From assembly GCA_015233115.1 (NCBI GenBank), contig JADFYJ010000014.1, positions 11,028-75,027 of the forward strand: a DNA stretch of 64,000 nucleotides. The letters are read 5' to 3'. A model generated the notes under the pieces. The model saw only the letters and a program-made list of their open reading frames with translations, did not search any database and was not told where the DNA came from. The translations under genes were made by a program, and so were the position numbers. This document shows, piece after piece, positions 5,379-61,002 of this stretch. The stretch is from Candidatus Omnitrophota bacterium. Lineage in GTDB: Bacteria > Omnitrophota > Gorgyraeia > Zapsychrales > Zapsychraceae. Within the stretch, counting starts at the first letter, position 1. Each line of letters begins with the position of its first letter.

Positions 5379-5418
5379 AAAAGCGAATAAAAAAAGGTCC
5401 GTCGTTTGGGTATAAAAT

Positions 5419-10219: not shown

Positions 10220-10220
10220 C

Positions 10221-10262
10221 ACCGCGCCGGAGGACCTACGATCCACCGACGCGGTGTTCCAT
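10221..10262. terminator. GC-rich hairpin downstream of TMTC-like paralog 1
   Basis: caccgcgccgg...ccaccgacgcggtgttcc imperfect inverted repeat sharing a core with 14069-14100 and 58616-58675. Confidence 0.45.
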
Positions 10263-10281
10263 GGGTTTATAGGGATTGATC

Positions 10282-37479: not shown

Positions 37480-37480
37480 T

Positions 37481-39259: not shown

Positions 39260-39465
39260 CCGAGTAACCGAGTAACAGAGTAACAAAGAGATAGCACAAA
39301 AGGCTAAACGCGATTGCTGAGAAAAGTTTTGTATTTTAAAAGCATCTATTTATTAAACATTTTTTATCAATTTTTGAGTATTAGTTTTTGTTTTTTATGC
39401 TTTTCGTTGTTTTACTCGGTTACTTTGTTACTCGGTTACTTTGTTACTCGGTTACTTTGTTACTA
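39256..39465. repeat. Intergenic island between the two pilB genes: (GTAACNRA) 8-mer array, AT-rich spacer, inverted (KGTTACTY)x7 array
   Basis: Left gtaaccgagtaaccgagtaacagagtaacaaagag 39256-39290; right gttgttttactcggttactttgttactcggttactttgttactcggttactttgttact 39405-39465. Confidence 0.8.
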
Positions 39466-39481
39466 TTAAGAATATAATCCT

Positions 39482-41200: not shown

Positions 41201-41203
41201 AAA

Positions 41204-41520
41204 AGAGTAACAAAGTAACCGAGTAACAGAGTAACCGAGTAAAAAAGTAACAACGGAAAGAATATAAAAAAATAAAAAACGAATGTGAAAAGAAAAGCAT
41301 TGGAAAAAAATATAAATTGTAAATTGCAAAGATTCGCTTTTTCTATTCAATATTGATGCTAAAATATCAAAGAATAGGATTTTGTTAAAATATAGAAGAA
41401 CATAAGGTTCGTGGCACAAGTAAGAAATTTTTATTATAAATAATATAATGCTTGCTTTGTGTTTTTAATTTTTTATTGTTTTATCATTGTTACTTTGTTA
41501 CTCGGTTACTCTGTTACTCT
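41204..41520. repeat. Intergenic island between pilB paralog and pilC, same GAGTAAC family
   Basis: Left agagtaacaaagtaaccgagtaacagagtaaccgagtaaaaaagtaacaacgg 41204-41252; right cattgttactttgttactcggttactctgttactct 41485-41520. Confidence 0.8.
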
Positions 41521-41536
41521 AAAGTGAGGTTAAATT

Positions 41537-42739: not shown

Positions 42740-42845
42740 TCAATAGGTTATAGGTTATAGGAAAAATTTTTGTCATTCCCGCGCAAGCGGGAATCCAGAT
42801 TTTCGTTTTTCCTGTCGCCTATCGTATTATCAAAGGAGAATAGGC

Positions 42846-43781
42846 ATGTATAAATTTTGCTGCATGGTAATAGCGTTAATAATGTTGGCCGCCACACCAG
42901 TGTTGGCTCAGGAAGGTCGGGTGACTACCCGGGATTGGAACGATTCTTTGCGCGCGTTGAATGAGAGTTTGCAGCAGGTTGACGCGAGAAATCAATGGCT
43001 GGCTTTCCAGATTGAGTTCATGAAGGGGGATATGTCGCGTCTTAAAGCTCAGGCAGATGAAATGAATCAGCAGGCCGTGGACAATCCAGGGCAGTTTGCG
43101 TTTAACAATAAACAAGAAGTGGAAGTTTTCCAAAAAGAAGCGGACGGAGTATATCAAAGTTTAAAAGCTATTGCTAAAGAGCGGCAAAATTTGGAAATCC
43201 GGTTGGTTGAAAAATCAAAAGAGGGAGTTCAACTCAAATCAGATATTGAGCAACTCACCAAAACGGTTGCAGAGTTAAAAGATCAATTGAGGTACTCCAT
43301 TTCGGGAACAGACCCGGATATAGAGCGCGAAAAAAAAGATTTAAGTGCTTGGATTAAAGACGCGGAAAAAAATTATAATAAGGCTCAGACGGAATTGGCA
43401 AGAGTGAAAAGGAAAAATGAGCCCGATGTCCGGATCAAAGATTTAGCAAAACACCGGGATGATTTACAGGCTAAGGTTGATAAATTAAAGACAGAGATGT
43501 CTCAGCTGGGACAAAATAAAGAAGAGTCAATTTCTGAATACGAAAAGAGGGCAAAATTCTCGCAAGACAATCTCAATGCCCTAGACGAAGAAATCGTTAA
43601 GTTGGAAAAACGTAAAGAAGAGTTAAATGTTATTCTAGATAATATTGCTAATAAGCTTGATAAGAATAATCTGCACTTAGATACACCGAAAGATAATCAG
43701 CAAGAATTAGAGAATAATTTGCAAATGTTAAAAAATGAAAATGCTCAACTTAAAGATAAGTTGAGCGCTTTTAAAAAATAA
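42846..43781 (+). CDS. Secreted coiled-coil protein (hypothetical)
   Basis: Signal-peptide-like N-terminus then continuous heptad-rich E/K/L/Q sequence. Confidence 0.35.
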   Translation: MYKFCCMVIALIMLAATPVLAQEGRVTTRDWNDSLRALNESLQQVDARNQWLAFQIEFMKGDMSRLKAQADEMNQQAVDNPGQFAFNNKQEVEVFQKEADGVYQSLKAIAKERQNLEIRLVEKSKEGVQLKSDIEQLTKTVAELKDQLRYSISGTDPDIEREKKDLSAWIKDAEKNYNKAQTELARVKRKNEPDVRIKDLAKHRDDLQAKVDKLKTEMSQLGQNKEESISEYEKRAKFSQDNLNALDEEIVKLEKRKEELNVILDNIANKLDKNNLHLDTPKDNQQELENNLQMLKNENAQLKDKLSAFKK

Positions 43782-43799
43782 GAGTGTCAACCAGGAAGC

Positions 43800-44366
43800 G
43801 TGCCAGTGGCTGAAAAATTTGATGCGCAAGTTATTGCGGCAAAACTTATGGGAAGTGTTCAAGACTTAATGGAAAAGACCTGCAAGTCTAAACTTTCGGA
43901 AAAACCAGTTATGGAGACGAAAGAAATCATTGAGTATGGCAGTAGGATGCGCGTGTTAGGACTTTCAAAATTCGACGGACCGTGTTATGTGGCTGCGGTT
44001 AATTTATATTTAAATCAGAAAAAATCCGAAGATAAAGATGCCTGCGGGGTCATTGTGAGTTATTGGGAACAGGAGACAGCGGAGGGTTTTGTCCGCGCTT
44101 TACAAAAGGGTTTAGACCTTGAAGACCCGGATGTGATATTGGATAGTTGCGGAGAATTTTGTAATAGTATTGCCGGCCAATTTAAAAACGAGTTAGCGGC
44201 GTTTGGTTATCCGGAGCTAAATCTTTCTACGATTATCAAAGCCCGGAACGAAATTGATGAGGGAGTTGATTTTCCTTTTAGCGAAGGAGAATATTGCGAG
44301 CTGTCATTTAAAGTAAAAAATAAAAAAGTGGTGGTTGTTTCTTTGGTTATGGCGCCCCCCGCATAA
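43800..44366 (+). CDS. CheX/CheC-family phosphatase-like protein
   Basis: DSCGEFCNSIAGQF fits the CheC/CheX/FliY D-x3-E-x2-N-x3-G active-site motif; located in the che cluster. Confidence 0.4.
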   Translation: MPVAEKFDAQVIAAKLMGSVQDLMEKTCKSKLSEKPVMETKEIIEYGSRMRVLGLSKFDGPCYVAAVNLYLNQKKSEDKDACGVIVSYWEQETAEGFVRALQKGLDLEDPDVILDSCGEFCNSIAGQFKNELAAFGYPELNLSTIIKARNEIDEGVDFPFSEGEYCELSFKVKNKKVVVVSLVMAPPA

Positions 44367-44393
44367 AGACTGGATTTTAAAGGAGCTCATTTT

Positions 44394-44810
44394 ATGACAC
44401 TGATGAATGTCCCTCAAGAAAGAAGAAAATATATCCGGCTTCCGCTGAAATGCATATTAAGGTGTTCTCCTTTTGCTGGACATGGTTCAGAATTGTGGTC
44501 AGGCGAAGTGACCACGGCTACTAAAAATATCAGCGCTGGCGGTATTTTATTTGAAAGCCGGCACCCTTATGAATTAGGAGCTTTATTGCAAGTCGAGGCG
44601 GACGTTCCGGGTTGGGAAAAATTTAAAACCGAATTTTATAAAGAAGAGCAGATTTCTCGGTCTTTGCCAGTGGTTATTTTGGTGTCGGTCGTGCGTGTTG
44701 AGGCGATTGAGATTGGGAGGAAATACGATATTGGAGCCGCTTTTGTGGGGATTGACCGGGGACATCAAGGAGCGCTGGTTAAATATATCAAAAGCCGGGT
44801 GAAGGAGTAG
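44394..44810 (+). CDS. PilZ-domain c-di-GMP-binding protein
   Basis: RRKYIRL (RxxxR) and NISAGGILFES (D/NxSxGG) PilZ motifs. Confidence 0.75.
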   Translation: MTLMNVPQERRKYIRLPLKCILRCSPFAGHGSELWSGEVTTATKNISAGGILFESRHPYELGALLQVEADVPGWEKFKTEFYKEEQISRSLPVVILVSVVRVEAIEIGRKYDIGAAFVGIDRGHQGALVKYIKSRVKE

Positions 44811-44817
44811 AAACCCA

Positions 44818-45333
44818 ATGCCAGAAATTAATTTTGAAGAGAGTACGAGCCGGGTGGCTAGGACTATAAAACAATTTGTGTGTTTTAAATTGGCGGCAGA
44901 AGAATACGCGATTGATATTAGTTATATTCAGGAAGTGATCCGGGTGGTGACGATTACTCAGGTGCCGCAGATGCCGGAGTTCTGCTGGGGTGTAATTAAT
45001 GTCAGGGGAAATGTTCTTCCGGTTTTTGATTTGCGGCGGTTGTTTCATTTGCCAGAAAAAAAATTTGATGCACAATCCAAATTTTTAATCGCTTCAATCG
45101 GAAATTTTATTGCCAGTTTTATTGTGGATGAGATTGTGGATAATATTAAATTAGAATCATCCGCTATTGATCCAACTCCCGCGGTTAAAATGAAAATCGA
45201 TGCAGATTGTATTAAAGGATTAGGCGAGTTGGATGACCGGATGATCGTGATCATCAATTTAGAAAAAGTCCATGATCATATTTTGAAAATAATTAATACT
45301 TTTTCAAAAATTAAGGGACCTGTCCATGAATAA
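44818..45333 (+). CDS. cheW: Chemotaxis coupling protein CheW
   Basis: FVCFKLAAEEYAIDISYIQEVIR...INVRGNVLPVFDLRRLF. Confidence 0.85.
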   Translation: MPEINFEESTSRVARTIKQFVCFKLAAEEYAIDISYIQEVIRVVTITQVPQMPEFCWGVINVRGNVLPVFDLRRLFHLPEKKFDAQSKFLIASIGNFIASFIVDEIVDNIKLESSAIDPTPAVKMKIDADCIKGLGELDDRMIVIINLEKVHDHILKIINTFSKIKGPVHE

Positions 45334-45748
45334 AAACCATCGGATTCAAGCGGATAACCGCCGAGTGTATACCCGCATTGACCGCCCGCATTTGCTTAAA
45401 GTCAAAATGTTTGATCTCAAGGATCAGAGTTCGGTGCGGAAAATAGAAGCCATTACTCGGAACGTATCTGCCGGGGGGTTAGCATTTGAATCGGAACAAT
45501 TTTTTGAATCCGGAACAGTTTTGGAGATTGAGCTAGATACGCCGGGATGGGAAAAACTCAGAGGCGTCTTTGACGGAGAAAAGGGCGATGCCTTGCCCTC
45601 AGCGGTGATGCTCTTGGCCAAAGTTATCCGGACAAGAGTTATTGAAGAGGATTTGTATGATATTGCTGTTTCTTTTGTTGGGATCGATGACCGGCATCGC
45701 CATGCTCTGACGAAATATGTCCAAGAACGAGAAAACAGCGCGGGTTAA
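45326..45748 (+). CDS. PilZ-domain c-di-GMP-binding protein (second)
   Basis: RRVYTRIDR and NVSAGGLAFES motifs. Confidence 0.75.
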   Translation: MNKNHRIQADNRRVYTRIDRPHLLKVKMFDLKDQSSVRKIEAITRNVSAGGLAFESEQFFESGTVLEIELDTPGWEKLRGVFDGEKGDALPSAVMLLAKVIRTRVIEEDLYDIAVSFVGIDDRHRHALTKYVQERENSAG

Positions 45749-45761
45749 AAGGAGGGGATGA

Positions 45762-46706
45762 GTGTCTTCGGAAAAAATTCGACTTTCAAATGTGCTATTA
45801 GACGTTGGAACGAATGAATTGGAAATTGTGGAATTTTGCCTGGCGGATAGTTTTTATGGGATTAATGTCATGAAGGTCAGGGAGATTATCCGCTGTCCAG
45901 AAAATATTGTAGCTGTGCCTCATGCTCATCCGGCTGTCGATGGTGTGATTAATGTCCGGGGCACGATTATTCCGGTTGTGAATTTGGCGCGTCAATTTGG
46001 CATCGATGATACCAAAGCCACTAAAGCGGTTCAGCGCATTATTATTTCCCAGTTTAATAAATTAACAATAGGTTTTCTGGTCAGTTCTGTCTCACGGATC
46101 CACAGGTTTTCGTGGCAACAGGTCGTCGCTCCGTCTGGCATGATTTCTAATGGTGATACTTATGTTGTTTCTATGGTCAAGATGGATGAAAAAATAATTT
46201 TATTATTAGATTTTGAAAAAATAGCTTTTGACGTTAGTCCTGAAGCACGCCCCCCGCAAGTGGAAGCTTCGCCGGTTAAAGAATTGCCAGCGGCATTTGA
46301 CCGCTCGGCTAAAACCATTCTGGTGGCAGAAGATTCGAAGTTTTTAAGGGCTGTTATGGTCGAGGCCTTGTCGAAATTAGGTTACAAAGTGATCGCGACG
46401 AGTGATGGAGAAGAAGCGTGGCAAGAGTTTGAAACTCATAATGCTAACAATGCGGCTGGCGGGGTTCCCATCGATTTATTAGTCAGCGATATTGAGATGC
46501 CGCGGATGGATGGGTTACATTTGGTGCGGAAGATAAAGGTTTCTAACGGATTTCGTAAGGTTCCTTGCATTGTTTTTTCATCTATGATAAATACCGATTT
46601 GTCCCAGCGTTGTGCCGCTATTGGGGTGGATGTCACGATCACTAAGCCGGAAATTAGTAAGCTTGTTGAAGCGGTAGAGGGCCATTTCAATCAAGGCAGG
46701 GCATGA
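45762..46706 (+). CDS. cheV: CheV (CheW-like domain fused to receiver domain)
   Basis: N-terminal CheW-like domain (LEIVEFCLADSFYGINVMKVREII...INVRGTIIPVVNLARQFG) and C-terminal REC (ILVAEDSKF...DLLVSDIEMPRMDG). Confidence 0.8.
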   Translation: MSSEKIRLSNVLLDVGTNELEIVEFCLADSFYGINVMKVREIIRCPENIVAVPHAHPAVDGVINVRGTIIPVVNLARQFGIDDTKATKAVQRIIISQFNKLTIGFLVSSVSRIHRFSWQQVVAPSGMISNGDTYVVSMVKMDEKIILLLDFEKIAFDVSPEARPPQVEASPVKELPAAFDRSAKTILVAEDSKFLRAVMVEALSKLGYKVIATSDGEEAWQEFETHNANNAAGGVPIDLLVSDIEMPRMDGLHLVRKIKVSNGFRKVPCIVFSSMINTDLSQRCAAIGVDVTITKPEISKLVEAVEGHFNQGRA

Positions 46707-47533
46707 ATATCGACATAAAAGATTCTGAATATAAAGCGGTCCATGACTTGATGTACCGTTACGCGGGCGTCCATCTGACAGAAAAGAAAAAGCCGTTGAT
46801 TGTGGCGCGGTTAAGGAAACGGCTGGTGGAGTTTTCTTTAAACACGTTGGGCGATTACATCAAATATTTGCAAACTCATTTAAAAGAAGAATTGCCCAAT
46901 TTTATTAGTGCTTTAACGACGAATGAAACATATTTTTTCCGGCATACGAAACAATTTAATTTATTTTTTGAAGAAATACTACCTGAATTGTGCAGCCGCA
47001 AAAAAAGGGCGGGTCAGAAACTGATTAAAATTTGGTCTGCGGCATCATCGACAGGGGAAGAAGCCTATTCCATCGCCATAGTTTGCCAGGAGTTTATGGC
47101 TAAGCATCCGGGTTGGCAATTCCAAATTTATGCGTCAGACATTGATTATCAAGTACTGCAGAAGGCCCGGGAAGGGATTTACGGTGAAAAAAGTGTGGCA
47201 AAAGTTACAGAATCTTTGATGCGTAAATATTTTACGGCGAGGCATGCGGGAATTATAAAGCGGTTCGAGTTAAACCATCAGATAAAACAATGTGTGACGT
47301 TTGAGAATCACAATTTAATGAATCCGCCGAAACGCGCGGATTATGACGTAATTTTTTTACGGAATGTTTTGTACTATTTTGATAAATCGACTCAACAAAC
47401 CGTAGCCAGCTTATTAGAATCCGCATTATTGCCGGGCGGATATTTTTTTGTCAGTCTATCAGAAAATTTACATGATCGTCCCAATCAATTAGAATATTTG
47501 AGAAATGGAATTTACCGCAAGGCTGATAGATAG
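46703..47533 (+). CDS. cheR: Chemotaxis protein methyltransferase CheR
   Basis: CheR all-alpha N-domain plus SAM methyltransferase (KIWSAASSTGEEAYSIAI). Confidence 0.85.
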   Translation: MNIDIKDSEYKAVHDLMYRYAGVHLTEKKKPLIVARLRKRLVEFSLNTLGDYIKYLQTHLKEELPNFISALTTNETYFFRHTKQFNLFFEEILPELCSRKKRAGQKLIKIWSAASSTGEEAYSIAIVCQEFMAKHPGWQFQIYASDIDYQVLQKAREGIYGEKSVAKVTESLMRKYFTARHAGIIKRFELNHQIKQCVTFENHNLMNPPKRADYDVIFLRNVLYYFDKSTQQTVASLLESALLPGGYFFVSLSENLHDRPNQLEYLRNGIYRKADR

Positions 47534-47569
47534 GTCACAAAGGCACAAGGTCACACCTTAAAGTTAGGA

Positions 47570-48655
47570 ATGTTTATGTTGAAAAAAATTAAAGTGGTGA
47601 TCGCGGATGATTCGGCGTTTTTTCGACAGGTTCTGAAAACTGTTTTGGAAGAATCCAGGAAGATCGTGGTCGTTGCCGCGGCGAAGAATGGGAAAGAAGC
47701 GGTTGAATTTGTCAAAACTCTTAACCCGGATATTTTGATTTTGGATTGTGATATGCCGGTGATGAATGGTTTGGATGCTTTAAAGCGGGTCATGGATGAG
47801 AACCCCTTACCGGTTTTGATGTTTAGCGCGTTAACACAGGAAGGGGCGAAAGAGACGTTGACCGCTTTATCATTGGGGGCTGTGGATTTTTTGCTCAAAC
47901 CCGCGGGGCATGCCCATGCGCTAGATGAAGTCGCGGAAGAATTGATCAAAAAAATTGAAACAATTGTCCGCCAGGCCAAATGGCGGGTTTCTCTTCCTTC
48001 GGTCAACCGGCCGAAGCTGTCCAATGGGGTTGAAACAGAAAATGTTCAGGTTCAAGACCGCCGGCCGGCTGTGGAGTTGAGGCGAAGAACAGTCGATTTG
48101 ATTGCTATGGGATCATCAACCGGCGGAGTGCAGGCGTCAACGAGAGTATTGATGGCTTTGCCAGAAAATACGGCCCCGATTGTATGGGTTCAGCATATGC
48201 CTCCGGAATTTACCAAAAATTTTGCTGAACGGTTAAATGGGTTGTGTCAAATGGAAGTGAAAGAGGCCAAAGATGGAGACCTGGTGAAGCGGGGAATTTG
48301 TTATCTGGCGCCAGGCGGATTTCAGATGCGCTTGTTAAAAAAAGGTAATGATTATTGTGTGAGTGTTAAATTAGGTGAAAAAGTTTCCGGTCAATGCCCG
48401 TCTTGTAATGTCTTGTTTGATTCGGCGGCAGAATATTTTGGTGACAATGCGCTGGGGATTATATTAACGGGCATGGGAGACGACGGAGCCTCTGGCTTAG
48501 CCAAAATGCACCAAAAAGGCGCATATGTGATCGGCCAGAATGAAAAATCCTGTGTGGTTTACGGGATGCCTAAAGCCGCGTATAATTTAGGCGCGGTGGA
48601 TATTGAACTGGATATTCAAGAAATTTCGGATGCCATTATTAAAGCCGGAGGTTGA
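47570..48655 (+). CDS. cheB: Chemotaxis methylesterase/deamidase CheB
   Basis: N-terminal REC (VVIADDSAFFRQ...ILDCDMPVMNG) plus methylesterase domain (IAMGSSTGG; GMGDDGASG). Confidence 0.9.
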   Translation: MFMLKKIKVVIADDSAFFRQVLKTVLEESRKIVVVAAAKNGKEAVEFVKTLNPDILILDCDMPVMNGLDALKRVMDENPLPVLMFSALTQEGAKETLTALSLGAVDFLLKPAGHAHALDEVAEELIKKIETIVRQAKWRVSLPSVNRPKLSNGVETENVQVQDRRPAVELRRRTVDLIAMGSSTGGVQASTRVLMALPENTAPIVWVQHMPPEFTKNFAERLNGLCQMEVKEAKDGDLVKRGICYLAPGGFQMRLLKKGNDYCVSVKLGEKVSGQCPSCNVLFDSAAEYFGDNALGIILTGMGDDGASGLAKMHQKGAYVIGQNEKSCVVYGMPKAAYNLGAVDIELDIQEISDAIIKAGG

Positions 48656-48656
48656 G

Positions 48657-49082
48657 ATGATAAGAAATATTATCTTAGTCGTGGATGATGAAGAGCATAT
48701 GGTGAGCTTGTTGAAACAAGCTTTGGCGGATGATCATACGGAAGTGATTGGTGCTTCTGATGGACAAGAAGCTTTGGATTTGGTATCGAACCGGCATGTG
48801 GATTTGATCATTGCGGATAACAATATGCCTAAAATTCTGGGAGAAAATCTTTTTTTAGAAATTAAAAAAATGGATCCATTTGTTCAGCTGATCATGATTA
48901 CGGGATATCCGTCAGTCACAGTGATTGTTAAGATGCTGGAAGCGGGAGTATCAGATTTTTTAATCAAGCCTTTTGATCTAAATCAGATTCAATTGGTGGT
49001 TAAAGAAACATTAGGGAGGATCGAACGCTGGCGCAATTTGCGCAAAGAGTGGATGGCGTATAAGAAAAGAGGAATCGAGTAA
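48657..49082 (+). CDS. Single-domain response regulator (CheY-like receiver)
   Basis: ILVVDDEEHMVSLL...DLIIADNNMP...FLIKPF; ATG at 48657 two nt after the cheB stop. Confidence 0.8.
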   Translation: MIRNIILVVDDEEHMVSLLKQALADDHTEVIGASDGQEALDLVSNRHVDLIIADNNMPKILGENLFLEIKKMDPFVQLIMITGYPSVTVIVKMLEAGVSDFLIKPFDLNQIQLVVKETLGRIERWRNLRKEWMAYKKRGIE

Positions 49083-49140
49083 CCGAGTGACAGAGCAAAA
49101 ATGTTGATGGATAAAAGAAAAATTATATTAAGGGAGAATT

Positions 49141-50097
49141 ATGGGCAGCGAAAATAATGAATTGATAGGAGAGTTTATCGCGGAGAGTGAGGAATACTTG
49201 GCCGTTTTAAACCAGAAATTGCTCAAGGCTGAAGATGCCATTAAATCCGGCGTGGATATGTCTGCGGAAGAATTAAACGCTATGTTCCGTTCTGTGCATA
49301 CGATTAAAGGGACAGCCTCCTTTTTTGATTTGCAAAAGATCGTTCATTTAACGCATGATATGGAAGCCGTTTTATCCCGGATAAAAAAATTTGAAATGAA
49401 ATTGACGGCGCCTATCATAGATGTATTATTCGGTGCTTTTGATACATTACAAAAATTGGTCACGAATTTAAAAGAACAGGGCTCATTGGATTCAGTGGAT
49501 ATTAAAAAAAATATTCAGGAAATCGCGTTGATCTTAGATGAAAAGCCTGTTGAACCAAGTATTAAAGGGACTCAGCCGAGTTTGGGTTCGAATCAACCGG
49601 TTCTCCCTGTTGTTGCGGCAGGGACAGTTATCCCGGCGGCCGTTTCTATTCCGCCCGCCGCGGTTCAGGTCCCCAAAGGAGAACAGGATTTTGGGGTCAT
49701 GGAGATCAATGATAGATTTATGGAAGCTTTTGTTTCGGATATCGAAGATAATGTTGAGAATTTTAATAATGATCTGATCAAGCTGGAACAAACTGGGAAT
49801 CTCGATTTGGTCGGGAATTTGTTTCGTTATGCTCATACTGTAAAAGGTTCGTCCGGCGTCGTTAATTGTCAGCCTATGACAGAGGTGTCCCATAAGATGG
49901 AAAGCATTTTGTCAGTTTTTCGCGAGCAGAAAAAAACTATTGATACAGATACGGTCACTTTGCTTTTAGATGGAATTGATACGGTTAAATTTATTTTAAA
50001 TGCAATTAAAAAACAGACTCATCTGGTTTTAGATTTGCAGGCCATTACCGATAAATTAGATCAGCAATACAAGAAATTGATCAACCCTGGAATTTGA
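49141..50097 (+). CDS. cheA: CheA N-terminal fragment: two tandem HPt (P1) domains
   Basis: Two HPt signatures, FRSVHTIKGTASFF and FRYAHTVKGSSGVV, separated by a Pro/Val-rich linker; no kinase domain. Confidence 0.75.
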   Translation: MGSENNELIGEFIAESEEYLAVLNQKLLKAEDAIKSGVDMSAEELNAMFRSVHTIKGTASFFDLQKIVHLTHDMEAVLSRIKKFEMKLTAPIIDVLFGAFDTLQKLVTNLKEQGSLDSVDIKKNIQEIALILDEKPVEPSIKGTQPSLGSNQPVLPVVAAGTVIPAAVSIPPAAVQVPKGEQDFGVMEINDRFMEAFVSDIEDNVENFNNDLIKLEQTGNLDLVGNLFRYAHTVKGSSGVVNCQPMTEVSHKMESILSVFREQKKTIDTDTVTLLLDGIDTVKFILNAIKKQTHLVLDLQAITDKLDQQYKKLINPGI

Positions 50098-50121
50098 GTG
50101 TGCTGGAAGGAGTCACTGAAT

Positions 50122-51519
50122 ATGAATGAATCTGCCCCAATATCTGCGGCGCACAATACGGGAAAATCCGCTCCAGTGGAAGTTTCAACATTACGGATTG
50201 ATTCCCGAAAATTGGATTTATTGATGAATATGTCTGGAGAGTTGGTCACCTTACGCGCACAATTTTCTCGTTTAGTGGCATTATTCAGAAATGAGCTGAT
50301 GACCTACAAGGAAATGACTAAGGCTTTGGAAGAATTGAAAGATTCATCGCTGCAAATGGTGTCCAGCAAATTGGATGTCGAACGACGAAAAAAGAGCGAA
50401 GAACAGTTTGTACGGTTGATAGGAAATGTCGAGCAATATAAAAATGAGCTTAATTTTACGGCTCAAGTGCATTCGTTTGATGAGCTGACCGGGATGCTGG
50501 GCAAATTAGCTTCTGATATTCAGTCGGGTATTATGCAAACGCGTATGATTCCAGTGGAATGGGTTTTTACCCGCTTCAAACGGGTCATCCGGGACATGGC
50601 TAAAGAGTTAAATAAAAATGTTGATTTGAAAGTAGAAGGCGAAGATACGGAATTGGATAAAAAAATTGTGGATTGTTTAGCTGATCCACTTACGCATATG
50701 ATCCGAAATGCCATGGACCATGGAATTGATGATAAAGAAACCCGGCTTAAGTTGGGCAAACCGGAAATAGGAACTGTTTTTTTAAAAGCCGCTAACCGGG
50801 GTAACACCATTTTTATAGAAGTCGGAGATGATGGACGGGGTATTGATCCGGAACGGTTGGTTAAAAAAGCAATTGAAAAAGGAATTATCAATCAAGAACA
50901 GGCCCAGCGGATGAGTGAAAAAGAGAAATTACATTTGATGTTTTTACCGGGTTTTAGCACTGCAGAAGCGGTGACGGCTATTTCTGGACGCGGTGTGGGG
51001 CTGGATGTCGTGACGAATATGCTTAATGCCGTTAATGGGACTATTGATATTGAAACAAAAATTGATATGGGGTCTAAGTTTATTTTAAAAATACCTTTAA
51101 CGTTAGCTATTATTCAAGCGTTATTGATTAAGATCAATGAACAGGTATTTGCGGTTCCTATTGAGGCAGTCATTGAGATTATTAAAGTGAGTACGGGGGA
51201 TATATATTCCATTGAAGGAAATGATACTGTGAAATTGCGCGGGCACGCTTTAAGTTTAGTCAGTTTAGAGCAGGTCATCAAGATACAGGGATGTTCAGAA
51301 AAAAATGGAGATGGTTTAAAAACAGTCGTAGTCATTGGTGATAAAGAAAATCGCATCGGGGTGTTAGTGGACAGTCTGATTGGCGAAGATGAAATTGTCA
51401 TTAAACCTTTATCAGAACACTTCAGTCATGTTAAAGGCGTGAGCGGGGCATCCATTTTAGGGGATGGAAATGTGGTGTTGATCTTAGACCCAAATGCCAT
51501 AATCAGCGAAGCGCAATAG
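50122..51519 (+). CDS. cheA: CheA C-terminal fragment: dimerization (P3), HATPase (P4) and CheW-like (P5) domains
   Basis: STLRIDSRKLDLLMNMSGELV (P3); HMIRNAMDHGID N-box; GRGVGLDVV G2 box; C-terminal CheW-like domain; AAGGAG RBS then ATG 50122 directly after the upstream stop. Confidence 0.8.
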   Translation: MNESAPISAAHNTGKSAPVEVSTLRIDSRKLDLLMNMSGELVTLRAQFSRLVALFRNELMTYKEMTKALEELKDSSLQMVSSKLDVERRKKSEEQFVRLIGNVEQYKNELNFTAQVHSFDELTGMLGKLASDIQSGIMQTRMIPVEWVFTRFKRVIRDMAKELNKNVDLKVEGEDTELDKKIVDCLADPLTHMIRNAMDHGIDDKETRLKLGKPEIGTVFLKAANRGNTIFIEVGDDGRGIDPERLVKKAIEKGIINQEQAQRMSEKEKLHLMFLPGFSTAEAVTAISGRGVGLDVVTNMLNAVNGTIDIETKIDMGSKFILKIPLTLAIIQALLIKINEQVFAVPIEAVIEIIKVSTGDIYSIEGNDTVKLRGHALSLVSLEQVIKIQGCSEKNGDGLKTVVVIGDKENRIGVLVDSLIGEDEIVIKPLSEHFSHVKGVSGASILGDGNVVLILDPNAIISEAQ

Positions 51520-51536
51520 CAGCGGAAAAGGCAGCA

Positions 51537-52025
51537 ATGAATGAAATGATTTTGATCCAGGTTGGAGTAGCTGATATCAAAGTCAGCAAAGCTCCGGCTA
51601 TGCTGATGACGAACTTAGGCTCATGCATTGCGGTATGTTTATATTATGAGCAAGGGCAGATCGGAGGCATGCTGCATTTGATGATGCCCCGCGCGGACGA
51701 AAAAGCTTTGGAATACCGGGGCTTTAAAAAAGAAAAATATGCGAATACTGGCATCCGTGAATTGGTGTATCAAATCAAACAGCAGTTTAGAGTTGACCAT
51801 TCGATGCTGACCGCCAAAATTTTTGGCGGCGGCCGTATTCTTCAAAATGTTTCCTTGGATATTGGGGCGGATAATGCCAAGGCGGCGCAGGACATTCTCC
51901 GGGAATTAGGAATCCGCATCATAGCATCTAAAGTTGGCGGGACCAAAGGGTATAATATTAGGTTTGATCTGTCGACGGGAAAAGTGCGTTGTCAGATTTT
52001 TGGCGAACAAGAACAGGAGTTTTAA
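51537..52025 (+). CDS. cheD: Chemoreceptor glutamine deamidase CheD
   Basis: IKVSKAPAMLMTNLGSCIAVCLY...GGMLHLMMP matches the CheD core with catalytic Cys. Confidence 0.8.
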   Translation: MNEMILIQVGVADIKVSKAPAMLMTNLGSCIAVCLYYEQGQIGGMLHLMMPRADEKALEYRGFKKEKYANTGIRELVYQIKQQFRVDHSMLTAKIFGGGRILQNVSLDIGADNAKAAQDILRELGIRIIASKVGGTKGYNIRFDLSTGKVRCQIFGEQEQEF

Positions 52026-52026
52026 C

Positions 52027-52635
52027 ATGGTTCATTCTAATAAAACCATCAACGCAATACAAATGATTGCTCGTTTAATTATTGATGAAGCATCCCGGGC
52101 TTTCTCAAAAATGATCAGGCAAGGCGTGAGCATTGAAATGCAAAACGCGTATTTTGATGATATTTCCAATGTGACAGCCAAGATTTGCAATGAATACAAT
52201 GAATACAAGGGAAGCGTAGGGGCCATCGTCGATTTGACAGGAGATGTTAAATTAAAATTTTTGTTTATGACGGATTTGAGTACAGCTCAGATTTTAACTG
52301 ACCTGTTACTGCGCCGCCAGACTGGTACAACCAAAGAATATGACATAAATGTTGAGAGTACGGTGCAGGAAATTGGGAATGTTCTTTCCTGTATTGTGGC
52401 GAATATGTTGGTCAATGATTTTCAAATTTCAATGACGCCGAGTGTACCGGTGGTTTTGCGGGATTTTGCCGGGACAATTTTTGCGGAATTTATCAGAGAT
52501 GTCGCTGACGAACGGCAGGAAGCGTTAGTCGTGGAGAGTAGATTTCTTCTTTCCAATCAGAAAATGAAGTGTCACATGTTTATTATGCCGGTTGGTGAAA
52601 GTGAGCAGATACTGCAGTATTTAACTTTTTCTTAA
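52027..52635 (+). CDS. CheC-like phosphatase (CheC/CheX/FliY family)
   Basis: Follows cheD (the classical cheC-cheD pairing is inverted here); EIGNVLSCIVANML resembles the CheC E-x2-N-x3-G...A motif. Confidence 0.4.
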   Translation: MVHSNKTINAIQMIARLIIDEASRAFSKMIRQGVSIEMQNAYFDDISNVTAKICNEYNEYKGSVGAIVDLTGDVKLKFLFMTDLSTAQILTDLLLRRQTGTTKEYDINVESTVQEIGNVLSCIVANMLVNDFQISMTPSVPVVLRDFAGTIFAEFIRDVADERQEALVVESRFLLSNQKMKCHMFIMPVGESEQILQYLTFS

Positions 52636-52650
52636 ACGTAAAGGACATTT

Positions 52651-53019
52651 ATGGGTAAAAAAATTATGGTGGTGGATGACGCCGCTGTTATTCGGCTTAT
52701 GTTGAAAGATATTTTGGAATCCCATCAATTTGAAGTGGTAGGAGAATGTAGTAACGGGCAAGATGCCATTGAAAAATTTAAGGCGTTGAAGCCGGATATT
52801 GTTACCATGGATATAATTATGCCGAATATGGACGGCGTTCAGGCGCTTGAGGAAATTTTGAAATTTGATAAGAATGCCAAAGTTATAATGGTCACAGCTC
52901 TTGATCAGCGGGAATTTCTTATGAAAGCTATCCGTTTGGGAGCCGCGGATTTTATTGTTAAGCCATTTGAAGATGCCCGGGTCATCGCGGCGATTCAAAG
53001 AGTTGCGAGACAAATATAA
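52651..53019 (+). CDS. cheY: Chemotaxis response regulator CheY
   Basis: KIMVVDDAAVIRLML...DIVTMDIIMPNMDG...KVIMVTA...IVKPF. Confidence 0.9.
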   Translation: MGKKIMVVDDAAVIRLMLKDILESHQFEVVGECSNGQDAIEKFKALKPDIVTMDIIMPNMDGVQALEEILKFDKNAKVIMVTALDQREFLMKAIRLGAADFIVKPFEDARVIAAIQRVARQI

Positions 53020-53024
53020 TTTTG

Positions 53025-53075
53025 AAAAGACACAAGTCACATGTCACATGTCACATGTTACAAGTTACCTGTGAC
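53025..53075. repeat. GTCACAT heptamer tandem array between cheY and hybrid kinase
   Basis: gtcacatgtcacatgtcacatgttacaagttacctgtgacac. Confidence 0.7.
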
Positions 53076-54231
53076 ACAACAAAGGTTACATATTTTGCCT
53101 GCCATATTGATCGTTGATGATTCAGAAGTGGAATGCGCCCTTTTAAAAGGGATATTGCATAAATCGTTTTCTGCATACGAAGTGTTAATTGCCCATCATG
53201 GCCGGGAAGGCCTGGAGCTGTTGGCGCAGAGAGACGTTGATATTGTCTTGTCTGATATGATGATGCCGGTTATGAATGGCTGGGAGTTTTGTGAAATTAT
53301 AAAAAAAGATCCCCGAACCAAAGATGTTCCAGTCCTTTTATTTTCTTCTTTAGAGCAGGTCCAGGAAAAAGCCAAAGGTTTTGAAGCGGGCGCGGCCGAT
53401 TATATTGTCAAACCAATCGAATCCGGTGAAGTCATCGCACGCATTAAAGTCCATTTAGGGCTTAAACATTATCAGGATCAATTGAAAGACCTTAACCGAG
53501 AGTTAAAAGAAGCTCAAGACGCTCTGGTGCAAAGTGAAAAAATGTCAGCGGTCGGAACTTTGGCGGCAGGGATTTCTCATGAATTTAATAATGTTTTGGC
53601 GATGATGAAAGGTTATATCCAGTTATCCCAGCAAAAGAATAAACTAGACGACGTGAAACCTGCCCTTGCGGTCATGCTGGACTTGGTCGAACGGGGGCAA
53701 TTTTTAGTAAGATCTATGCTGGATTTTTCCAAAGGCGGGATGTCGGAAAACAAGCAAAAAATAGTTTTAGCACAGATAATCGATAAAGTCAGGGTGCTTA
53801 TGGAACCCATGTTTAAGGCGCAGGGTGTTCAGGTTGAGCTTCAGGGTAAATCCTCGTGTGAGTTGCAAGGTTATCCTAATCAATTGTCTCAAGCGATTAT
53901 TAATTTTGCCAAGAATGGGATTGAAGCCTGTGAAGGCCGTACGGAGAAAAAAATTACCATTGAATTCGGTAAATCTTTGTTCGATAGGGTGGAGTGCGCG
54001 TATATCCGGGTCATTGATACCGGCGCCGGAATCCCTGAATCAATTCGGAAATGTATTTTTGATCCTTTTGTGACCACCAAAGGTGTTATCGCCGGAGGCA
54101 ATCGTTCCACGGCTGGCACGGGGTTGGGTTTAACTGTTTCGTATAATATTATCAAAAAACACCACGGTGAAGTCAAAATCGAAAAGACCGGCTCTGCAGG
54201 AACGACGATGCTAGTTACTATACCTCTATAA
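53041..54231 (+). CDS. Hybrid receiver-histidine kinase (REC-HisKA-HATPase)
   Basis: N-terminal REC (ILIVDDSEVE...VLSDMMMPVMNG), H-box ISHEFNNVLAMM, G-boxes (IDTGAGI; GTGLGLTVS). Confidence 0.8.
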   Translation: MSHVTCYKLPVTQQRLHILPAILIVDDSEVECALLKGILHKSFSAYEVLIAHHGREGLELLAQRDVDIVLSDMMMPVMNGWEFCEIIKKDPRTKDVPVLLFSSLEQVQEKAKGFEAGAADYIVKPIESGEVIARIKVHLGLKHYQDQLKDLNRELKEAQDALVQSEKMSAVGTLAAGISHEFNNVLAMMKGYIQLSQQKNKLDDVKPALAVMLDLVERGQFLVRSMLDFSKGGMSENKQKIVLAQIIDKVRVLMEPMFKAQGVQVELQGKSSCELQGYPNQLSQAIINFAKNGIEACEGRTEKKITIEFGKSLFDRVECAYIRVIDTGAGIPESIRKCIFDPFVTTKGVIAGGNRSTAGTGLGLTVSYNIIKKHHGEVKIEKTGSAGTTMLVTIPL

Positions 54232-54321: not shown

Positions 54322-54531
54322 ATGGAAAAGAAAAGATTAAGCGACCTTTTACACGATCTTAGTCAGCCGCTTTGCGCCTCAGTCATCAATCTTAAAGTTT
54401 TAGCTTCCTTTTTGGAAAAAGACAAGTTAGATCTTCCGGAAATAAAAAATATAGTTGCCGACGTAGAACGCGAACAAAATCGCGCTGTCGAGATATTAAA
54501 CACCCTACGGACCACCATTAAGGAGATTTGA
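54322..54531 (+). CDS. Stand-alone HisKA_3-like dimerization/phosphoacceptor mini-protein
   Basis: 69 aa; RLSDLLHDLSQPL resembles the HisKA_3 H-box (R.IARELHDslGQ.L) of NarX/DesK-type kinases; length equals one HisKA_3 domain; no ATPase domain. Confidence 0.4.
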   Translation: MEKKRLSDLLHDLSQPLCASVINLKVLASFLEKDKLDLPEIKNIVADVEREQNRAVEILNTLRTTIKEI

Positions 54532-55148
54532 ATATGGACAATAAATTTTTCGTCATTTATGTCGTGGATGATGATACCGCGATGTTGAAATCACTGGAAC
54601 GGGTGTTTGTGGGGAAAGGATATCGAGTAGAGGTTTTCGTGTCTGCTAAAGATTTTTTGTCTAAAGGAAAATACCATCAGCCTGCCTGCATTTTATTGGA
54701 TCTGCGTATGCCGGAGTTAAGCGGGCTGGAGCTTCAACAGCATCTTTTAACCCGAGGAGTTTTATTGCCGATTATTTTTATTTCCGGCCAGGGCGATGTT
54801 CCCAGCAGTGTGAAAGCCATGAAAGGCGGGGCTATTGATTTTATTGTAAAACCTTTTGACATGGATGAATTATTATCTACCGTTGAGCGGGCGCTGGCGT
54901 TATCAGTGAAAACTCAAAAAGAACAGGCAGAAAAAAATAAACTGCGGGTTTTGTTGGATAAAATGACTCAACGGGAAAAACAAGTTTTTCATCTAGTGGT
55001 TAAAGGGATGCTGAATAAACAAATTGCTGCGGCTTTAGGGATCAGTGAAAAAACTGTCAAAGTACACCGGGGAAGATTTATGGAAAAATTGGATGTTAAT
55101 TCTGTAGCCGAATTAGTAAAACTCGCAGGCAAAGCGGCTAATCTCTAA
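54528..55148 (+). CDS. NarL/FixJ-family response regulator (REC + LuxR-type HTH)
   Basis: REC (FVIYVVDDDTAML...ILLDLRMPELSG) and C-terminal LTQREKQVFHLVVKGMLNKQIAAALGISEKTVKVHR. Confidence 0.9.
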   Translation: MNMDNKFFVIYVVDDDTAMLKSLERVFVGKGYRVEVFVSAKDFLSKGKYHQPACILLDLRMPELSGLELQQHLLTRGVLLPIIFISGQGDVPSSVKAMKGGAIDFIVKPFDMDELLSTVERALALSVKTQKEQAEKNKLRVLLDKMTQREKQVFHLVVKGMLNKQIAAALGISEKTVKVHRGRFMEKLDVNSVAELVKLAGKAANL

Positions 55149-55225
55149 TGTAAAGGTTAGGTCGCAGGTCACAAAGAGTAGCAAAGATTATAAAAAAACA
55201 TGAAATATATCACGATAGGATAAAT

Positions 55226-55798
55226 ATGAAAGCAAGACCTTTAACCACGGGTGAAATGGCGCATTATTGTCATGTGACATACCGGACTGTTTTAAAATGG
55301 ATCGAAGATGGTAAATTGAAAGCTTATCGGACGCCAGGGAAACACAGCCGGGTAGCGGCTGAAGAATTTGTCCGTTTTTTGCGTGATTATCAAATGCCGA
55401 TTCCTGAAGAATTCCGGTCGTTGGCAGAATCAAAAAAAATTTTAGTGGTTGATGATGACAAAAATATGATCAAATCATTACAACGTTTATTGAAAAATGC
55501 CGGATACAATGAAATTGAAGCGGCATTTGATGGTTTTGAAGCTGGTCGGAAATTTTTTGAATTCGAACCGCATTTGGTGCTATTGGATATCCGGATGCCT
55601 GGGATTGATGGTTATCATGTTGTAGAACATATTAAAAAATCGCCACATGGGCATTTGGCCAAGATTATCGCGATTTCTGCGTTTTTTGAAGAAGATAAAA
55701 AAGCCGCGTTGTTCAAACAAGGAGTCAATTTTTGTTTTGACAAACCATTTGATCCCAAGGATCTTGTGGAAAAGGTCAAAAGTCTCCTTGGAGACTAG
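55226..55798 (+). CDS. Response regulator with N-terminal excisionase/MerR-type HTH and C-terminal receiver domain
   Basis: LTTGEMAHYCHVTYRTVLKWIEDGKLKAYRTPGKHSRV (HTH_17-like) then ILVVDDDKNMIKSL...VLLDIRMPGIDG. Confidence 0.7.
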   Translation: MKARPLTTGEMAHYCHVTYRTVLKWIEDGKLKAYRTPGKHSRVAAEEFVRFLRDYQMPIPEEFRSLAESKKILVVDDDKNMIKSLQRLLKNAGYNEIEAAFDGFEAGRKFFEFEPHLVLLDIRMPGIDGYHVVEHIKKSPHGHLAKIIAISAFFEEDKKAALFKQGVNFCFDKPFDPKDLVEKVKSLLGD

Positions 55799-55812
55799 GA
55801 GAAAAAGATCTT

Positions 55813-58611
55813 ATGCTTTTTATCATAAGGCGAGGGGTTCGCCGGTACTTTCTAACCTGGTTTTTCATTATGGTTTGGCAAATTTTCTCCGGGGGGGACG
55901 CCCAAGCTGAGACGGCTTCTTCGGCGAGTTGCAGTCGTATCGGAGTTGTTACAGAGCAGGATGCCCTGGATGCCAAACAGCATTGGATTCCTACGGTTGA
56001 TTATTTGAACCAAAATATTAAAGATTATTGTTTTGAATTAAAAATATTTGACCCGCAATATGCTTTAACCGCAGTGAAGGAAAAAGAAGCGGATTTTTTT
56101 GTTATGAGTCCCGTCGTATTTTCCGAGATTGGACATCTTGTTCCCCTTGAAAGTTATTTAACCATGGAACGCACGCAGGGCGGCTTTATATATCCCCTGA
56201 ATGGTGCTGTAGTGTTTACCCGTTCCGATCATCAATATTTAAATTATTTCCGGGATTTGCGTGATAACCGGGCGATTGTACTGAAAACAGAGGGGATGCA
56301 AGGAGAATTAGCTTTTCTGCGTGAACTCACTGATCTGCATATGAATCCTGCTGGGAAATTTAAACAATACACGTCAACGGCCAATTATAAAGAAATATGT
56401 TCTGCTGTCTTGCGGGGTGAATATGATATTGGTGTTTCAGCGACGGGTGATTTGGAGCAGTGTGTCGTAGAGAAATTATTGAAATGGAAGGATGTCAAAG
56501 TTTTGGAGCCGTATCAGGGGTTCCGGATGGGGAACAATTATAATGTACCTTTCCGATATAGCACAAGGTTATATGCGGATTGGGTTTTTGTTTCAGTCGA
56601 GCATCTCCCTTCACTTTTAATCCGCGATACGGTTGGCGCTTTATTGAATGTTCCGGAAAATGCTCCAGCGGCCCTATCAGCCGGTTATGCTGGATGGCTG
56701 CCTGATTTAAGTTATCAAGATGTTCATGATGCGTTGCAGAATTTAAAGCGGGGGCCGCGTAATTGGGTGGATATTCAAAATGCTTTTATGCTGATTTGGA
56801 AGTTTTATAGATGGGGAATTATCAGTGTGTTGTGTTTTTTAATTTTTTTAATCGGGGCGTTATTATATTTGATGGTCAAGAATATTGGCTTATACCGCGT
56901 TAAACAGGACCTGGCGCGAAAGCTAGTTTCACAAAAAAACATTGAGGACGGAGCCCAGGAAACAGAAGCCAAAATCGATGCAATATTAAACGCCATCCCG
57001 TATGCGGTCATTGGTTTTGAAAATGATGTTATTATTTTTGCCAATGGCGCGGTTAAAAAAATGTTTGGCAGGGATCCGGAAAGTTTGATAGGTAAAACAG
57101 CGGAAATATTATATTCAGGGGCGAATTATATCAATGTTTTGGAGGAAATTTATGGAACGTTAAAAAATGAGCAAACGTTATCTAAAGAGCTTAGGGCGAT
57201 CCGTAAAAATGGAGAAAAATTTGATTGTTTAGTCAGTGTGGCTCAGCTGAAAAATGATAAATCACAACACCGGTTCGTGGGAGTTTTCGTGGATGTCACG
57301 GAACGGTACAACCGAGAAGAGTTGTTAAGGAAATTGTCAAAGGCGATCCAACAAAATCCTGCTGGAGTTATTATCGCTTCACCTGCAGGGAGGATTGAAT
57401 ATGTCAATGACCGATTTCTGCAGATTTCCGGTTGGGATCGGAATTCCGTATTGAACGTTAATATTCAGAAATTAATTGTTGATTTATTGATGGATGGGAA
57501 AAGTACAGATTTCTGGAAAATGGTTGTAAATGGCCAGCTCACCCAGAAAGAATTTTTTAGCCGGCGAAAAAATGCTGAACTGTATTGGGGCATGTTTACG
57601 GTTTCTCCATTAAAAGATAATGAGGGAGGGATAACTCATTTTGTTTTCAATTGGGAAGATATTTCAGAACGTAAAAAAACTGAAGAAAAATTTAAGGTGA
57701 GTCAACAAGAATTAGAACGCGCGAATAAAAATTTAGTCGAAAATGAAAAAACTTTAAAAAATATGATTCAGGATTTGGAGGCGACCCATCGGCAATTAAA
57801 GACGATGCAGGCGCAGTTAATCCAAACCGAAAAATTATCATCTATTGGTCAATTGGCGGCTGGCATTGCTCACGAAATTAATAACCCGGTGGCATTTATT
57901 ACCAGCAATATTAATGCGTTGGAACGATATTTGGTTAGTTTTAAAAAAATATTTTATATTTTAAAAGAATTGGAAAATAGCGCGGGTGGAGAAGACAGCA
58001 GAATGGCGCGGGATATTTTCAAAAAATTGGAAAGGGTGACCGAAGAAGAAGATATTAATTTTATTCTTAAGGATATTGACGCAGTGATCGCGGAATCGAA
58101 AGAAGGTTTGGAGCGCATCAAAAATATTGTTCTGGATATGAAGACCTTTTCCCGCCGGGATGATTTGTCCCGGATGCCGGCGGATATCAACCATATTTTG
58201 GACGGAGTGATCAATATTGTTTGGAATGAAATTAAATATAAAGCTAAATTAGTAAAAAATTTTCAGCCTCTGCCTTTAATTAATTGCAATCCCCAGCAGA
58301 TAGGGCAGGTTTTTATGAATCTTTTGATCAACGCCGTTCAAGCCATTGATGAACAAGGACAGATTACGGTTTCGACATACCTAAAAAATAATTTTGCGGT
58401 GGTTGAGATCGCGGATACCGGAAGGGGTATTCCGGCGGATGTGCGGGGTAATATTTTTGAGCCATTTTACACGACAAAAAAAACCGGAGAAAGTACCGGA
58501 TTAGGATTAAGTATCAGTTTGGAAATTATTAACCGGCATCAAGGAAAAATTGATCTGGAAAGTGAGATAGGAAAAGGGACAACTTTTATAGTTCGTTTGC
58601 CGGTTGTGTGA
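55813..58611 (+). CDS. Sensor histidine kinase with periplasmic solute-binding-like domain, PAS domains, HisKA and HATPase
   Basis: Signal/TM, periplasmic PhnD-like domain, TM (ISVLCFLIFLIGALLYLMV), PAS regions, H-box IAHEINNPVAFI, G-boxes (IADTGRGI; GLGLSIS). Confidence 0.8.
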   Translation: MLFIIRRGVRRYFLTWFFIMVWQIFSGGDAQAETASSASCSRIGVVTEQDALDAKQHWIPTVDYLNQNIKDYCFELKIFDPQYALTAVKEKEADFFVMSPVVFSEIGHLVPLESYLTMERTQGGFIYPLNGAVVFTRSDHQYLNYFRDLRDNRAIVLKTEGMQGELAFLRELTDLHMNPAGKFKQYTSTANYKEICSAVLRGEYDIGVSATGDLEQCVVEKLLKWKDVKVLEPYQGFRMGNNYNVPFRYSTRLYADWVFVSVEHLPSLLIRDTVGALLNVPENAPAALSAGYAGWLPDLSYQDVHDALQNLKRGPRNWVDIQNAFMLIWKFYRWGIISVLCFLIFLIGALLYLMVKNIGLYRVKQDLARKLVSQKNIEDGAQETEAKIDAILNAIPYAVIGFENDVIIFANGAVKKMFGRDPESLIGKTAEILYSGANYINVLEEIYGTLKNEQTLSKELRAIRKNGEKFDCLVSVAQLKNDKSQHRFVGVFVDVTERYNREELLRKLSKAIQQNPAGVIIASPAGRIEYVNDRFLQISGWDRNSVLNVNIQKLIVDLLMDGKSTDFWKMVVNGQLTQKEFFSRRKNAELYWGMFTVSPLKDNEGGITHFVFNWEDISERKKTEEKFKVSQQELERANKNLVENEKTLKNMIQDLEATHRQLKTMQAQLIQTEKLSSIGQLAAGIAHEINNPVAFITSNINALERYLVSFKKIFYILKELENSAGGEDSRMARDIFKKLERVTEEEDINFILKDIDAVIAESKEGLERIKNIVLDMKTFSRRDDLSRMPADINHILDGVINIVWNEIKYKAKLVKNFQPLPLINCNPQQIGQVFMNLLINAVQAIDEQGQITVSTYLKNNFAVVEIADTGRGIPADVRGNIFEPFYTTKKTGESTGLGLSISLEIINRHQGKIDLESEIGKGTTFIVRLPVV

Positions 58612-60917: not shown

Positions 60918-61002
60918 TTTTGTAAAAGTCCATTGCGGGACGGTGTTTTGTTTGGCATACTTATAATAGGAAAAAAGAATTAAATCATGTCAGGAGTACA
61001 AA

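Follow-up and report, generated by a model that had tools for sequence, protein, structure and literature searches.

Split CheA kinases made up 11 of 481 CheAs in an earlier survey (PMC3591291), and bipartite CheAs with the Hpt domain as a separate gene of the same operon have been documented (Berry et al. 2023; PMC10782961). In the account given in PMC10782961, which cites Garzon & Parkinson 1996 and related work, liberated P1 supports signaling and overexpressed Hpt makes up for the loss of P2. In Escherichia coli, free P1 acts as a substrate of the kinase core with CheW and receptors, following Michaelis-Menten kinetics (PMC6044545). Here, we describe a two-gene CheA locus in a metagenome-assembled genome (MAG) of an uncultured Candidatus Omnitrophota bacterium (GCA_015233115.1), located on a 64,000-nucleotide stretch of contig JADFYJ010000014.1 (positions 11,028 to 75,027 of the forward strand), which we call the window and whose own numbering is used throughout. 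The upstream open reading frame (ORF1) encodes two Hpt domains and nothing else, and the downstream one (ORF2) encodes a P3-P4-P5 kinase core. Judging from the sequence, we give a probability of roughly 0.6 to the reading that the pair is a lineage-specific bipartite CheA, that is, a genuine and working two-protein kinase. It is one more example of a rare arrangement already on record (Berry et al. 2023); what distinguishes it is its recency (the ORFs are in frame and separated by one codon, and the orthologs are fused), its free phosphate carrier of two domains, the coincident loss of P2, and a hint of an older internal start.

The bipartite CheA of Berry et al. is a closer precedent than the CheA3/CheA4 pair of Rhodobacter (Cereibacter) sphaeroides. 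As in the window, it consists of an Hpt protein and a P3-P4-P5 protein from adjacent genes of one chemosensory operon, with function in trans deduced from the liberated-P1 experiments. In the window, by contrast, the free protein contains two full P1-type domains, there is no P2, a single codon separates the ORFs, which share a frame, and the orthologs, about forty in number, are fused, so that the fission appears recent and lineage-specific. CheA4 resembles the kinase half of the window pair in being a P1-less P3-P4-P5 protein, which phosphorylates the P1 domain of CheA3, neither protein autophosphorylating alone (PMC3591291). However, CheA3 keeps P5 for array localization, carries degenerate Hpt, P2, P3 and P4 remnants and has phosphatase activity, and the pair originated by duplication and is conserved across the Rhodobacteraceae (PMC10782961), whereas ORF1 has no P5 with which to share the co-localization seen there, and the window pair would stem from the fission of one gene. 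The parallel with CheA3/CheA4, drawn in an earlier note made from this DNA, is therefore a loose analogy. The protein composition predicted for the window is that of the engineered E. coli system of isolated P1 and P3P4P5 core; that system is artificial and has a single P1, and the native CheA possesses P2, in contrast to two P1 domains and no P2 here. A further comparison is E. coli CheA-short, for which a second Shine-Dalgarno sequence (SD) and start (AUG98) inside cheA give an N-terminally shortened product without the phospho-acceptor His (PMC13515050), much as several orthologs carry an SD and ATG ahead of P3. CheA-short starts inside P1 and keeps P2, whereas the putative short form here would be a bare P3-P4-P5 core; in the window, unlike CheA-long and CheA-short, the two products are now separate cistrons, and the internal start of the orthologs is proposed from sequence alone. 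The parts of the locus are as follows.

49141..50097, forward strand: ORF1, stand-alone Hpt-Hpt protein, 318 aa, MBF0479446.1, ending in a TGA stop
49150..49539, forward strand: Hpt1, P1-type five-helix bundle, residues ~4-133 (Pfam, AlphaFold, structure matches)
49558..49698, forward strand: disordered Pro/Ala/Val-rich linker between Hpt1 and Hpt2, residues 140-186 (predicted local distance difference test score, pLDDT, <50)
49699..50082, forward strand: Hpt2, P1-type five-helix bundle, residues ~187-314 (AlphaFold, motifs)
50095..50097, forward strand: in-frame TGA between the ORFs, at the site of P2 and its linkers in fused orthologs
50107..50112, forward strand: SD AAGGAG, 9 nt past the stop and 9 nt ahead of the ATG
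50122..51519, forward strand: ORF2, CheA kinase core P3-P4-P5, 465 aa, MBF0479447.1, ATG start
50185..50358, forward strand: P3 dimerization domain, opening with the STLRIDS motif at residue 22 (Pfam, motif)
50680..51102, forward strand: P4, HATPase_c (N box 50695, G1 50827, F 50941, G2 50986)
51115..51513, forward strand: P5, CheW-like receptor-coupling domain (Pfam)

NCBI lists the two proteins as adjacent entries, annotated 'Hpt domain-containing protein' (MBF0479446.1) and 'chemotaxis protein CheA' (MBF0479447.1), each a singleton cluster and both on a single 78.7-kb contig. The two ORFs share one reading frame, and 49141-51519 translates into 792 codons whose sole internal stop is the TGA at 50095-50097, which keeps P1 and the core from forming one polypeptide as in a canonical CheA. 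The earlier note had offered a frameshifted single gene as an alternative, to be revealed by a single-base indel restoring a continuous CheA; because the ORFs are in frame, an indel cannot restore the fused gene, and just a substitution at the TGA could do so. The junction has normal operon form, since the stop is followed by 9 nt, AAGGAG, another 9 nt and the ATG at 50122 (24 nt from stop to ATG), which corrects the thirteen nucleotides previously counted between the stop and the ribosome-binding site. No terminator-like site was found between ORF1 and ORF2, and on sequence inspection the junction lies mid-contig in non-repetitive DNA with no N and no homopolymer. The layout is that of a bipartite CheA: an Hpt-only gene and an Hpt-less core gene, adjacent and on the same strand of one operon, with start signals of its own ahead of the kinase core. 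AAGGAG-type SDs also stand at real starts elsewhere in the window (e.g., 823, 24901, 42846, 45762, 54534), and an SD of at least 6 nt precedes none of the 412 internal in-frame ATGs of its long ORFs, indicating that the ORF2 start is a real signal rather than a chance one.

Both halves are well preserved. Pfam PF01627 (Hpt) matched ORF1 in two stretches (E 1.9e-30), and a motif check placed the two signatures that had been read from the sequence, HTIKGTASFF and HTVKGSSGVV, in this TGA-terminated frame. The phospho-acceptor of Hpt1 is His53 (nt 49297-49299, in HTIKGTASFF), with an HxME motif at residue 72, and that of Hpt2 is His232 (nt 49834-49836, in HTVKGSSGVV), with HxME at residue 251, so that the HxxKG histidine and the helper Glu of a CheA P1 domain both occur twice. 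The AlphaFold model (mean pLDDT 81.6) contains two complete five-helix bundles (residues 2-133 and 191-314), and ORF1 appears untruncated because its stop comes 4 residues beyond the fifth helix of the confidently modeled Hpt2. Structure matches of Hpt1 were the CheA P1 domains 2LD6, 1TQG and 1I5N, and the CheA3-P1 structure 3KYI was a weak match to ORF1 (E 1.2e-4). In ORF2, Pfam recovered H-kinase_dim (E 2.5e-10), HATPase_c (4.3e-15) and CheW (2.6e-25) and no Hpt, in agreement with the domain reading in the earlier note; the P3-P4-P5 core has the fixed order of a CheA, and its N, G1, F and G2 boxes are all intact.

Alignment-based scans of species-representative genomes and of metagenomes gave 80 loci each; exact-word scans for the locus, run with one protein at a time, had returned no match in genome or metagenome contigs. 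Stop-to-stop ORFs were translated, with Hpt domains called by hidden Markov model and kinase cores by phmmer, and the 39 non-redundant loci with a score of 400 bits or more against ORF2 were taken as orthologous. In all 39, the Hpt domain(s) and the kinase core form one ORF of about 780-990 aa, with 49-57% identity to ORF2; four more loci, truncated at the 3' end, were fused too. These loci belong mostly to Omnitrophota, with some MAGs labeled Elusimicrobia, Oligoflexia or Planctomycetales, and we regard the operons as orthologous because the gene order CheV-CheR-CheB-(REC)-CheA-CheD-CheC/X-CheY-(REC-HK) is kept throughout. The split is thus found in 0 of 39 relatives, and the comparison with related genomes that had been proposed showed it not to be conserved among these loci, as a CheA3/CheA4-type split would be. 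A HMMER search with ORF1 over 1.84 billion representatives gave 54 matches at E <= 1e-30, of which, besides the query, five were short (224-579 aa, genomic context not placed) and the rest at least 754 aa.

Pfam on representative fused orthologs read Hpt-Hpt-P2-P3-P4-P5, and two Hpt domains occur in 33 of the 39 fused loci. The fused double-Hpt CheAs of this clade (e.g., L005-L033; P0016, P0023) share the operon order of the window and its two P1-type Hpt domains, with 49-57% identity in the kinase core and 37-52% in the Hpt domains, but are single polypeptides of 820-990 aa with P2 between Hpt2 and P3 (P0016, fused without P2, being the exception), whereas the window has two proteins and no P2. 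For the suggestion of a true two-component CheA with a double-Hpt substrate, the two-protein reading is the best supported, whereas the double Hpt is the norm of the clade and not specific to the split. The same note overlooked the absence of P2: no Pfam match to this CheY-binding domain was found in ORF1 or ORF2, and Hpt2 is separated from the P3 motif by about 56 codons counting the stop, versus 160-230 residues including P2 in fused two-Hpt orthologs. This spacing places the stop exactly at what appears to be the site from which P2 and its linkers were removed. This family can do without P2, and can lose it without fission, as shown by P0016, a relative of 757 aa in the same operon context that is fused yet P2-less. 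P0016 is not supported as a sister of the window CheA, its kinase identity being 53% versus 56-57% for P2-bearing orthologs, and since it is no closer than these, P2 loss looks independent in the two lineages. P2 is missing from about 52% of CheAs overall (PMC10782961). As a side observation, the Hpt-Hpt-P2-P3-P4-P5 architecture without a C-terminal REC is the clade norm (L005-L033, L075, L089-L102), in operons of the CheC/CheD/CheV type. According to the literature, 18% of CheAs have at least two Hpt domains, about 93% of them being of the ACF or Tfp class and over 90% carrying a C-terminal REC, which makes a REC-less double-Hpt CheA in a CheC/CheD/CheV operon a minority type.

Several other apparent splits dissolved on inspection. 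The 444-aa Hpt-Hpt-P2 gene and 488-aa kinase gene of L002 are separated by a 10-N scaffold gap (2845-2854) standing in for about 48 nt, and the 'TGA' of this locus belongs to an off-frame cTGAac that also occurs in the fused close relatives L011 and L075. In L066 (Victivallales), the frame switches at a G9 homopolymer (1638-1705). L103, which gave the closest tblastn match to the kinase core (61%), lies on a contig with several homopolymer frameshifts (indels at 2850-3420) and is uninformative, as are three 'short CheAs' (P0006/L009, P0007/L003, P0010/L004) that contig ends cut while the frame is open upstream. The window thus holds the only clean and credible split at this junction among the loci examined. 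Artefactual cheA 'splits' of this sort in public MAG and metagenome contigs would inflate the bipartite CheA counts of automated surveys.

Hpt-less cores of other kinds were also encountered. The closest reliable homologue of ORF2 among 5.8 billion proteins, P0004 (59% identical; L001 4211-6722), comes from a P3-P4-P5 gene without Hpt, which follows immediately after that of a REC-REC-HisKA protein devoid of a HATPase domain, and no Hpt was found within 10 kb of it; this locus may be a different kind of split kinase. P0029, an Hpt-less CheA core of 421 aa, was seen on 5 contigs (L165/L166 569-8582) in a separate MCP-CheW-CheW-PilZ-MCP-CheA(core)-MORN-repeat cluster. The recurrence of P0029, together with the existence of P0004, shows that P1-less CheA cores are stable genes in Omnitrophota, in support of the bipartite reading.

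The start of the kinase core may predate the split. Eight fused orthologs (L007, L008, L011, L014, L019, L020, L075, L092) carry an in-frame SD and ATG or GTG just upstream of P3, and four others (L012, L015, L017, L024) have a weaker one. The signal takes the form AAGGAG(G) or GAGGTG followed by ATG or GTG, 20-34 codons before the P3 motif (for instance at ~4944 in L007, ~4917 in L011, ~4950 in L014 and ~4914 in L075); five of the eight starts fall at -20 to -22 codons, the ORF2 Met stands 21 codons ahead of the motif, and the stand-alone kinase-core gene in L001 starts at a similar place. Across 36 fused ORFs, 8 of the 30 signals with an SD of at least 6 nt lie within the 29 codons before P3, a region of 3.3% of codons (binomial p = 4e-6). 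When the test was confined to the first set of 25 loci, p was 5.7e-6 (5.4e-5 if L011 and L075 are counted as one); the shared ancestry of the orthologs inflates the statistic. L002, L011 and L075 have a conserved stretch of nucleotides around the SD-ATG in a linker that is otherwise variable, and the signal is limited to about a quarter to a third of the orthologs. From these data we advance, tentatively and at less than even odds, the idea that cheA genes of the clade carry a selected internal start in the P2-P3 linker that yields a bare P3-P4-P5 core beside full-length CheA, with the window as the end-state. Were the core made either way, any stop in the linker would yield two usable products at once.

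What we observed is the structure of the genes, the integrity of their domains, the start signals and the comparison with orthologs; from these we infer function and trans-phosphorylation, and the following course of events would account for them. The ancestor would have been a single Hpt-Hpt-P2-P3-P4-P5 gene, the norm of the Omnitrophota-centered clade, from which P2 and its linkers were lost in the lineage of the window, where an in-frame TGA came to end the first product just past Hpt2. If the core did already have a start of its own, P2 loss and one stop codon could have made two genes out of one gene with two nested products, and function need not have suffered. The kinase core is predicted to be translated from its AAGGAG-N9-ATG, probably coupled to translation of ORF1, and to dock as a P3-P4-P5 dimer to receptor arrays through P5 with CheW and CheV. 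P4 would then bind ATP and phosphorylate in trans one or both of His53 and His232 on the free Hpt-Hpt protein, and the phosphorylated protein would pass the phosphate to the REC domains of CheY, CheB, CheV and the REC proteins. As the ORFs are still in frame, leaky UGA readthrough could supply traces of full-length kinase.

Several observations weigh against a genuine bipartite kinase. It is a single instance, with both proteins singletons on one contig and the closest reliable kinase homologue at 59%; the orthologs are fused without exception; one substitution would give a fused 792-aa protein; and the internal SD and start do not separate the hypotheses, given that several fused orthologs carry an SD and ATG as well. 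In one competing reading, the TGA is a consensus or assembly artefact, or a minor-allele nonsense single-nucleotide polymorphism, in a gene that is really a fused, P2-less Hpt-Hpt-P3-P4-P5 of 792 aa. A single sense-codon substitution separates the locus from that form, which is known from the same operon context in P0016 and keeps to the fused rule of the family, and a single, unreplicated MAG is the source of the sequence. Three other apparent splits (L002, L066, L103) did turn out to be artefactual; however, those were indels, N-gaps and homopolymers, whereas the stop in the window is clean, of the substitution type and outside repetitive DNA. In a consensus built from short reads, stop-creating substitution errors are generally rare, which counts against an artefact, and a stop set just 9 nt ahead of an SD and right after a domain boundary is more orderly than a random linker mutation. 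We therefore consider an artefact unlikely, though it is the strongest of the competitors.

A slightly smaller chance attaches to a stop that is real but recently inactivating, with the pathway being lost or impaired and the two products forming no working kinase. The split is shared by no relative, and losing the tether and P2 should reduce phosphotransfer efficiency, deletion of P2 being known to slow transfer in E. coli (PMC10782961). Nevertheless, no second lesion was found in either CheA half or in 12 flanking che genes, and with the SD and ATG in place both products would be made all the same, free P1 and kinase core being biochemically competent (PMC6044545, PMC10782961). When the pairwise identities of Hpt1 and Hpt2 were regressed on kinase-core identity over 23 loci, the window residuals were +0.028 for Hpt1 (standard deviation 0.06) and -0.016 for Hpt2 (standard deviation 0.047), ranking 17th and 6th of 23; Hpt divergence thus fits that predicted from the kinase, neither domain shows excess divergence, and long-term relaxed constraint in either half is not indicated. 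This rules out an old pseudogene and is still compatible with a very recent mutation. Programmed recoding of the UGA, whether as selenocysteine, by reassignment to Trp or Gly, or by stimulated readthrough, would make the full-length protein the main product. UGA is the leakiest bacterial stop codon, which counts in favor of such recoding, and in the shared frame readthrough would give a complete Hpt-Hpt-P3-P4-P5. Yet the RNA 3' of the UGA folds no better than shuffled sequences (z = +0.96; 168 of 200 shuffles folded equally well or better), which argues against a selenocysteine insertion sequence (SECIS)-like hairpin, and no Rfam RNA family was found in the window. Of the 39 long ORFs in the window, 7 terminate in TGA, one such case being the ATGA overlap of CheV and CheR; the genetic code is therefore standard and an alternative code is rejected, and a special residue would make no sense in a poorly conserved linker. 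Neither of the hallmarks of UGA recoding, a SECIS-like hairpin 3' of the UGA or TGA reassignment, was thus seen, and we regard recoding as highly improbable, leaving the bipartite kinase as the preferred reading.

The split CheA sits in an intact chemosensory operon, in the order CheX-like, PilZ, CheW, PilZ, CheV, CheR, CheB, REC, [Hpt-Hpt], [P3P4P5], CheD, CheC/X, CheY, REC-HisKA-HATPase.

43800..54231, forward strand: intact chemosensory operon around the split CheA, intergenic gaps of -8 to 58 nt
44818-45333: CheW, operon member
45762-46706: CheV, operon member
48654-49082: REC protein, operon member
52651-53019: CheY, operon member

Two tandem PilB-like ATPases (37460-39259 and 39470-41200) precede this operon, within a region (37460-45748) that also holds a PilC-like platform protein (41534-42739) and a 311-aa coiled-coil protein upstream of the CheX-like, PilZ, CheW and PilZ genes. 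A scan of the cluster ORFs showed no MCP, and the che system of the window may govern type IV pili rather than flagella. Downstream of CheY, the operon goes on with a REC-HisKA-HATPase hybrid kinase (53041-54231) and then, at 54528-58611, with genes for a REC-LuxR regulator, an HTH-REC protein and a PAS-PAS histidine kinase of 952 aa whose periplasmic domain is phosphonate-binding-like. Elsewhere in the window, a YhcG-type nuclease gene (823-1935) stands ahead of an AddAB-like pair (1932-8220) composed of a 1055-aa UvrD-type helicase that bears a PD-(D/E)XK nuclease domain and a 934-aa PD-(D/E)XK protein; three paralogous TPR-repeat proteins, each of about 600-680 aa, follow one after another at 8171-14080, and a 540-aa ORF at 60970-62592 has no Pfam match.

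The practical impact of the locus is limited, as the organism is uncultured, bipartite CheAs have already been described, and one MAG is all that attests the TGA. Should the stop prove real, however, it would capture a natural CheA fission at a very early stage, with about forty fused orthologs to compare. The pair would then be a clean natural test of the importance of the covalent P1 tether and of the P2 docking domain, and would also allow the theoretical claim that response dynamics change when a kinase is split (PMC3591291) to be tested. An older internal start, if true, would suggest how multidomain genes in general can divide with no non-functional stage in between.

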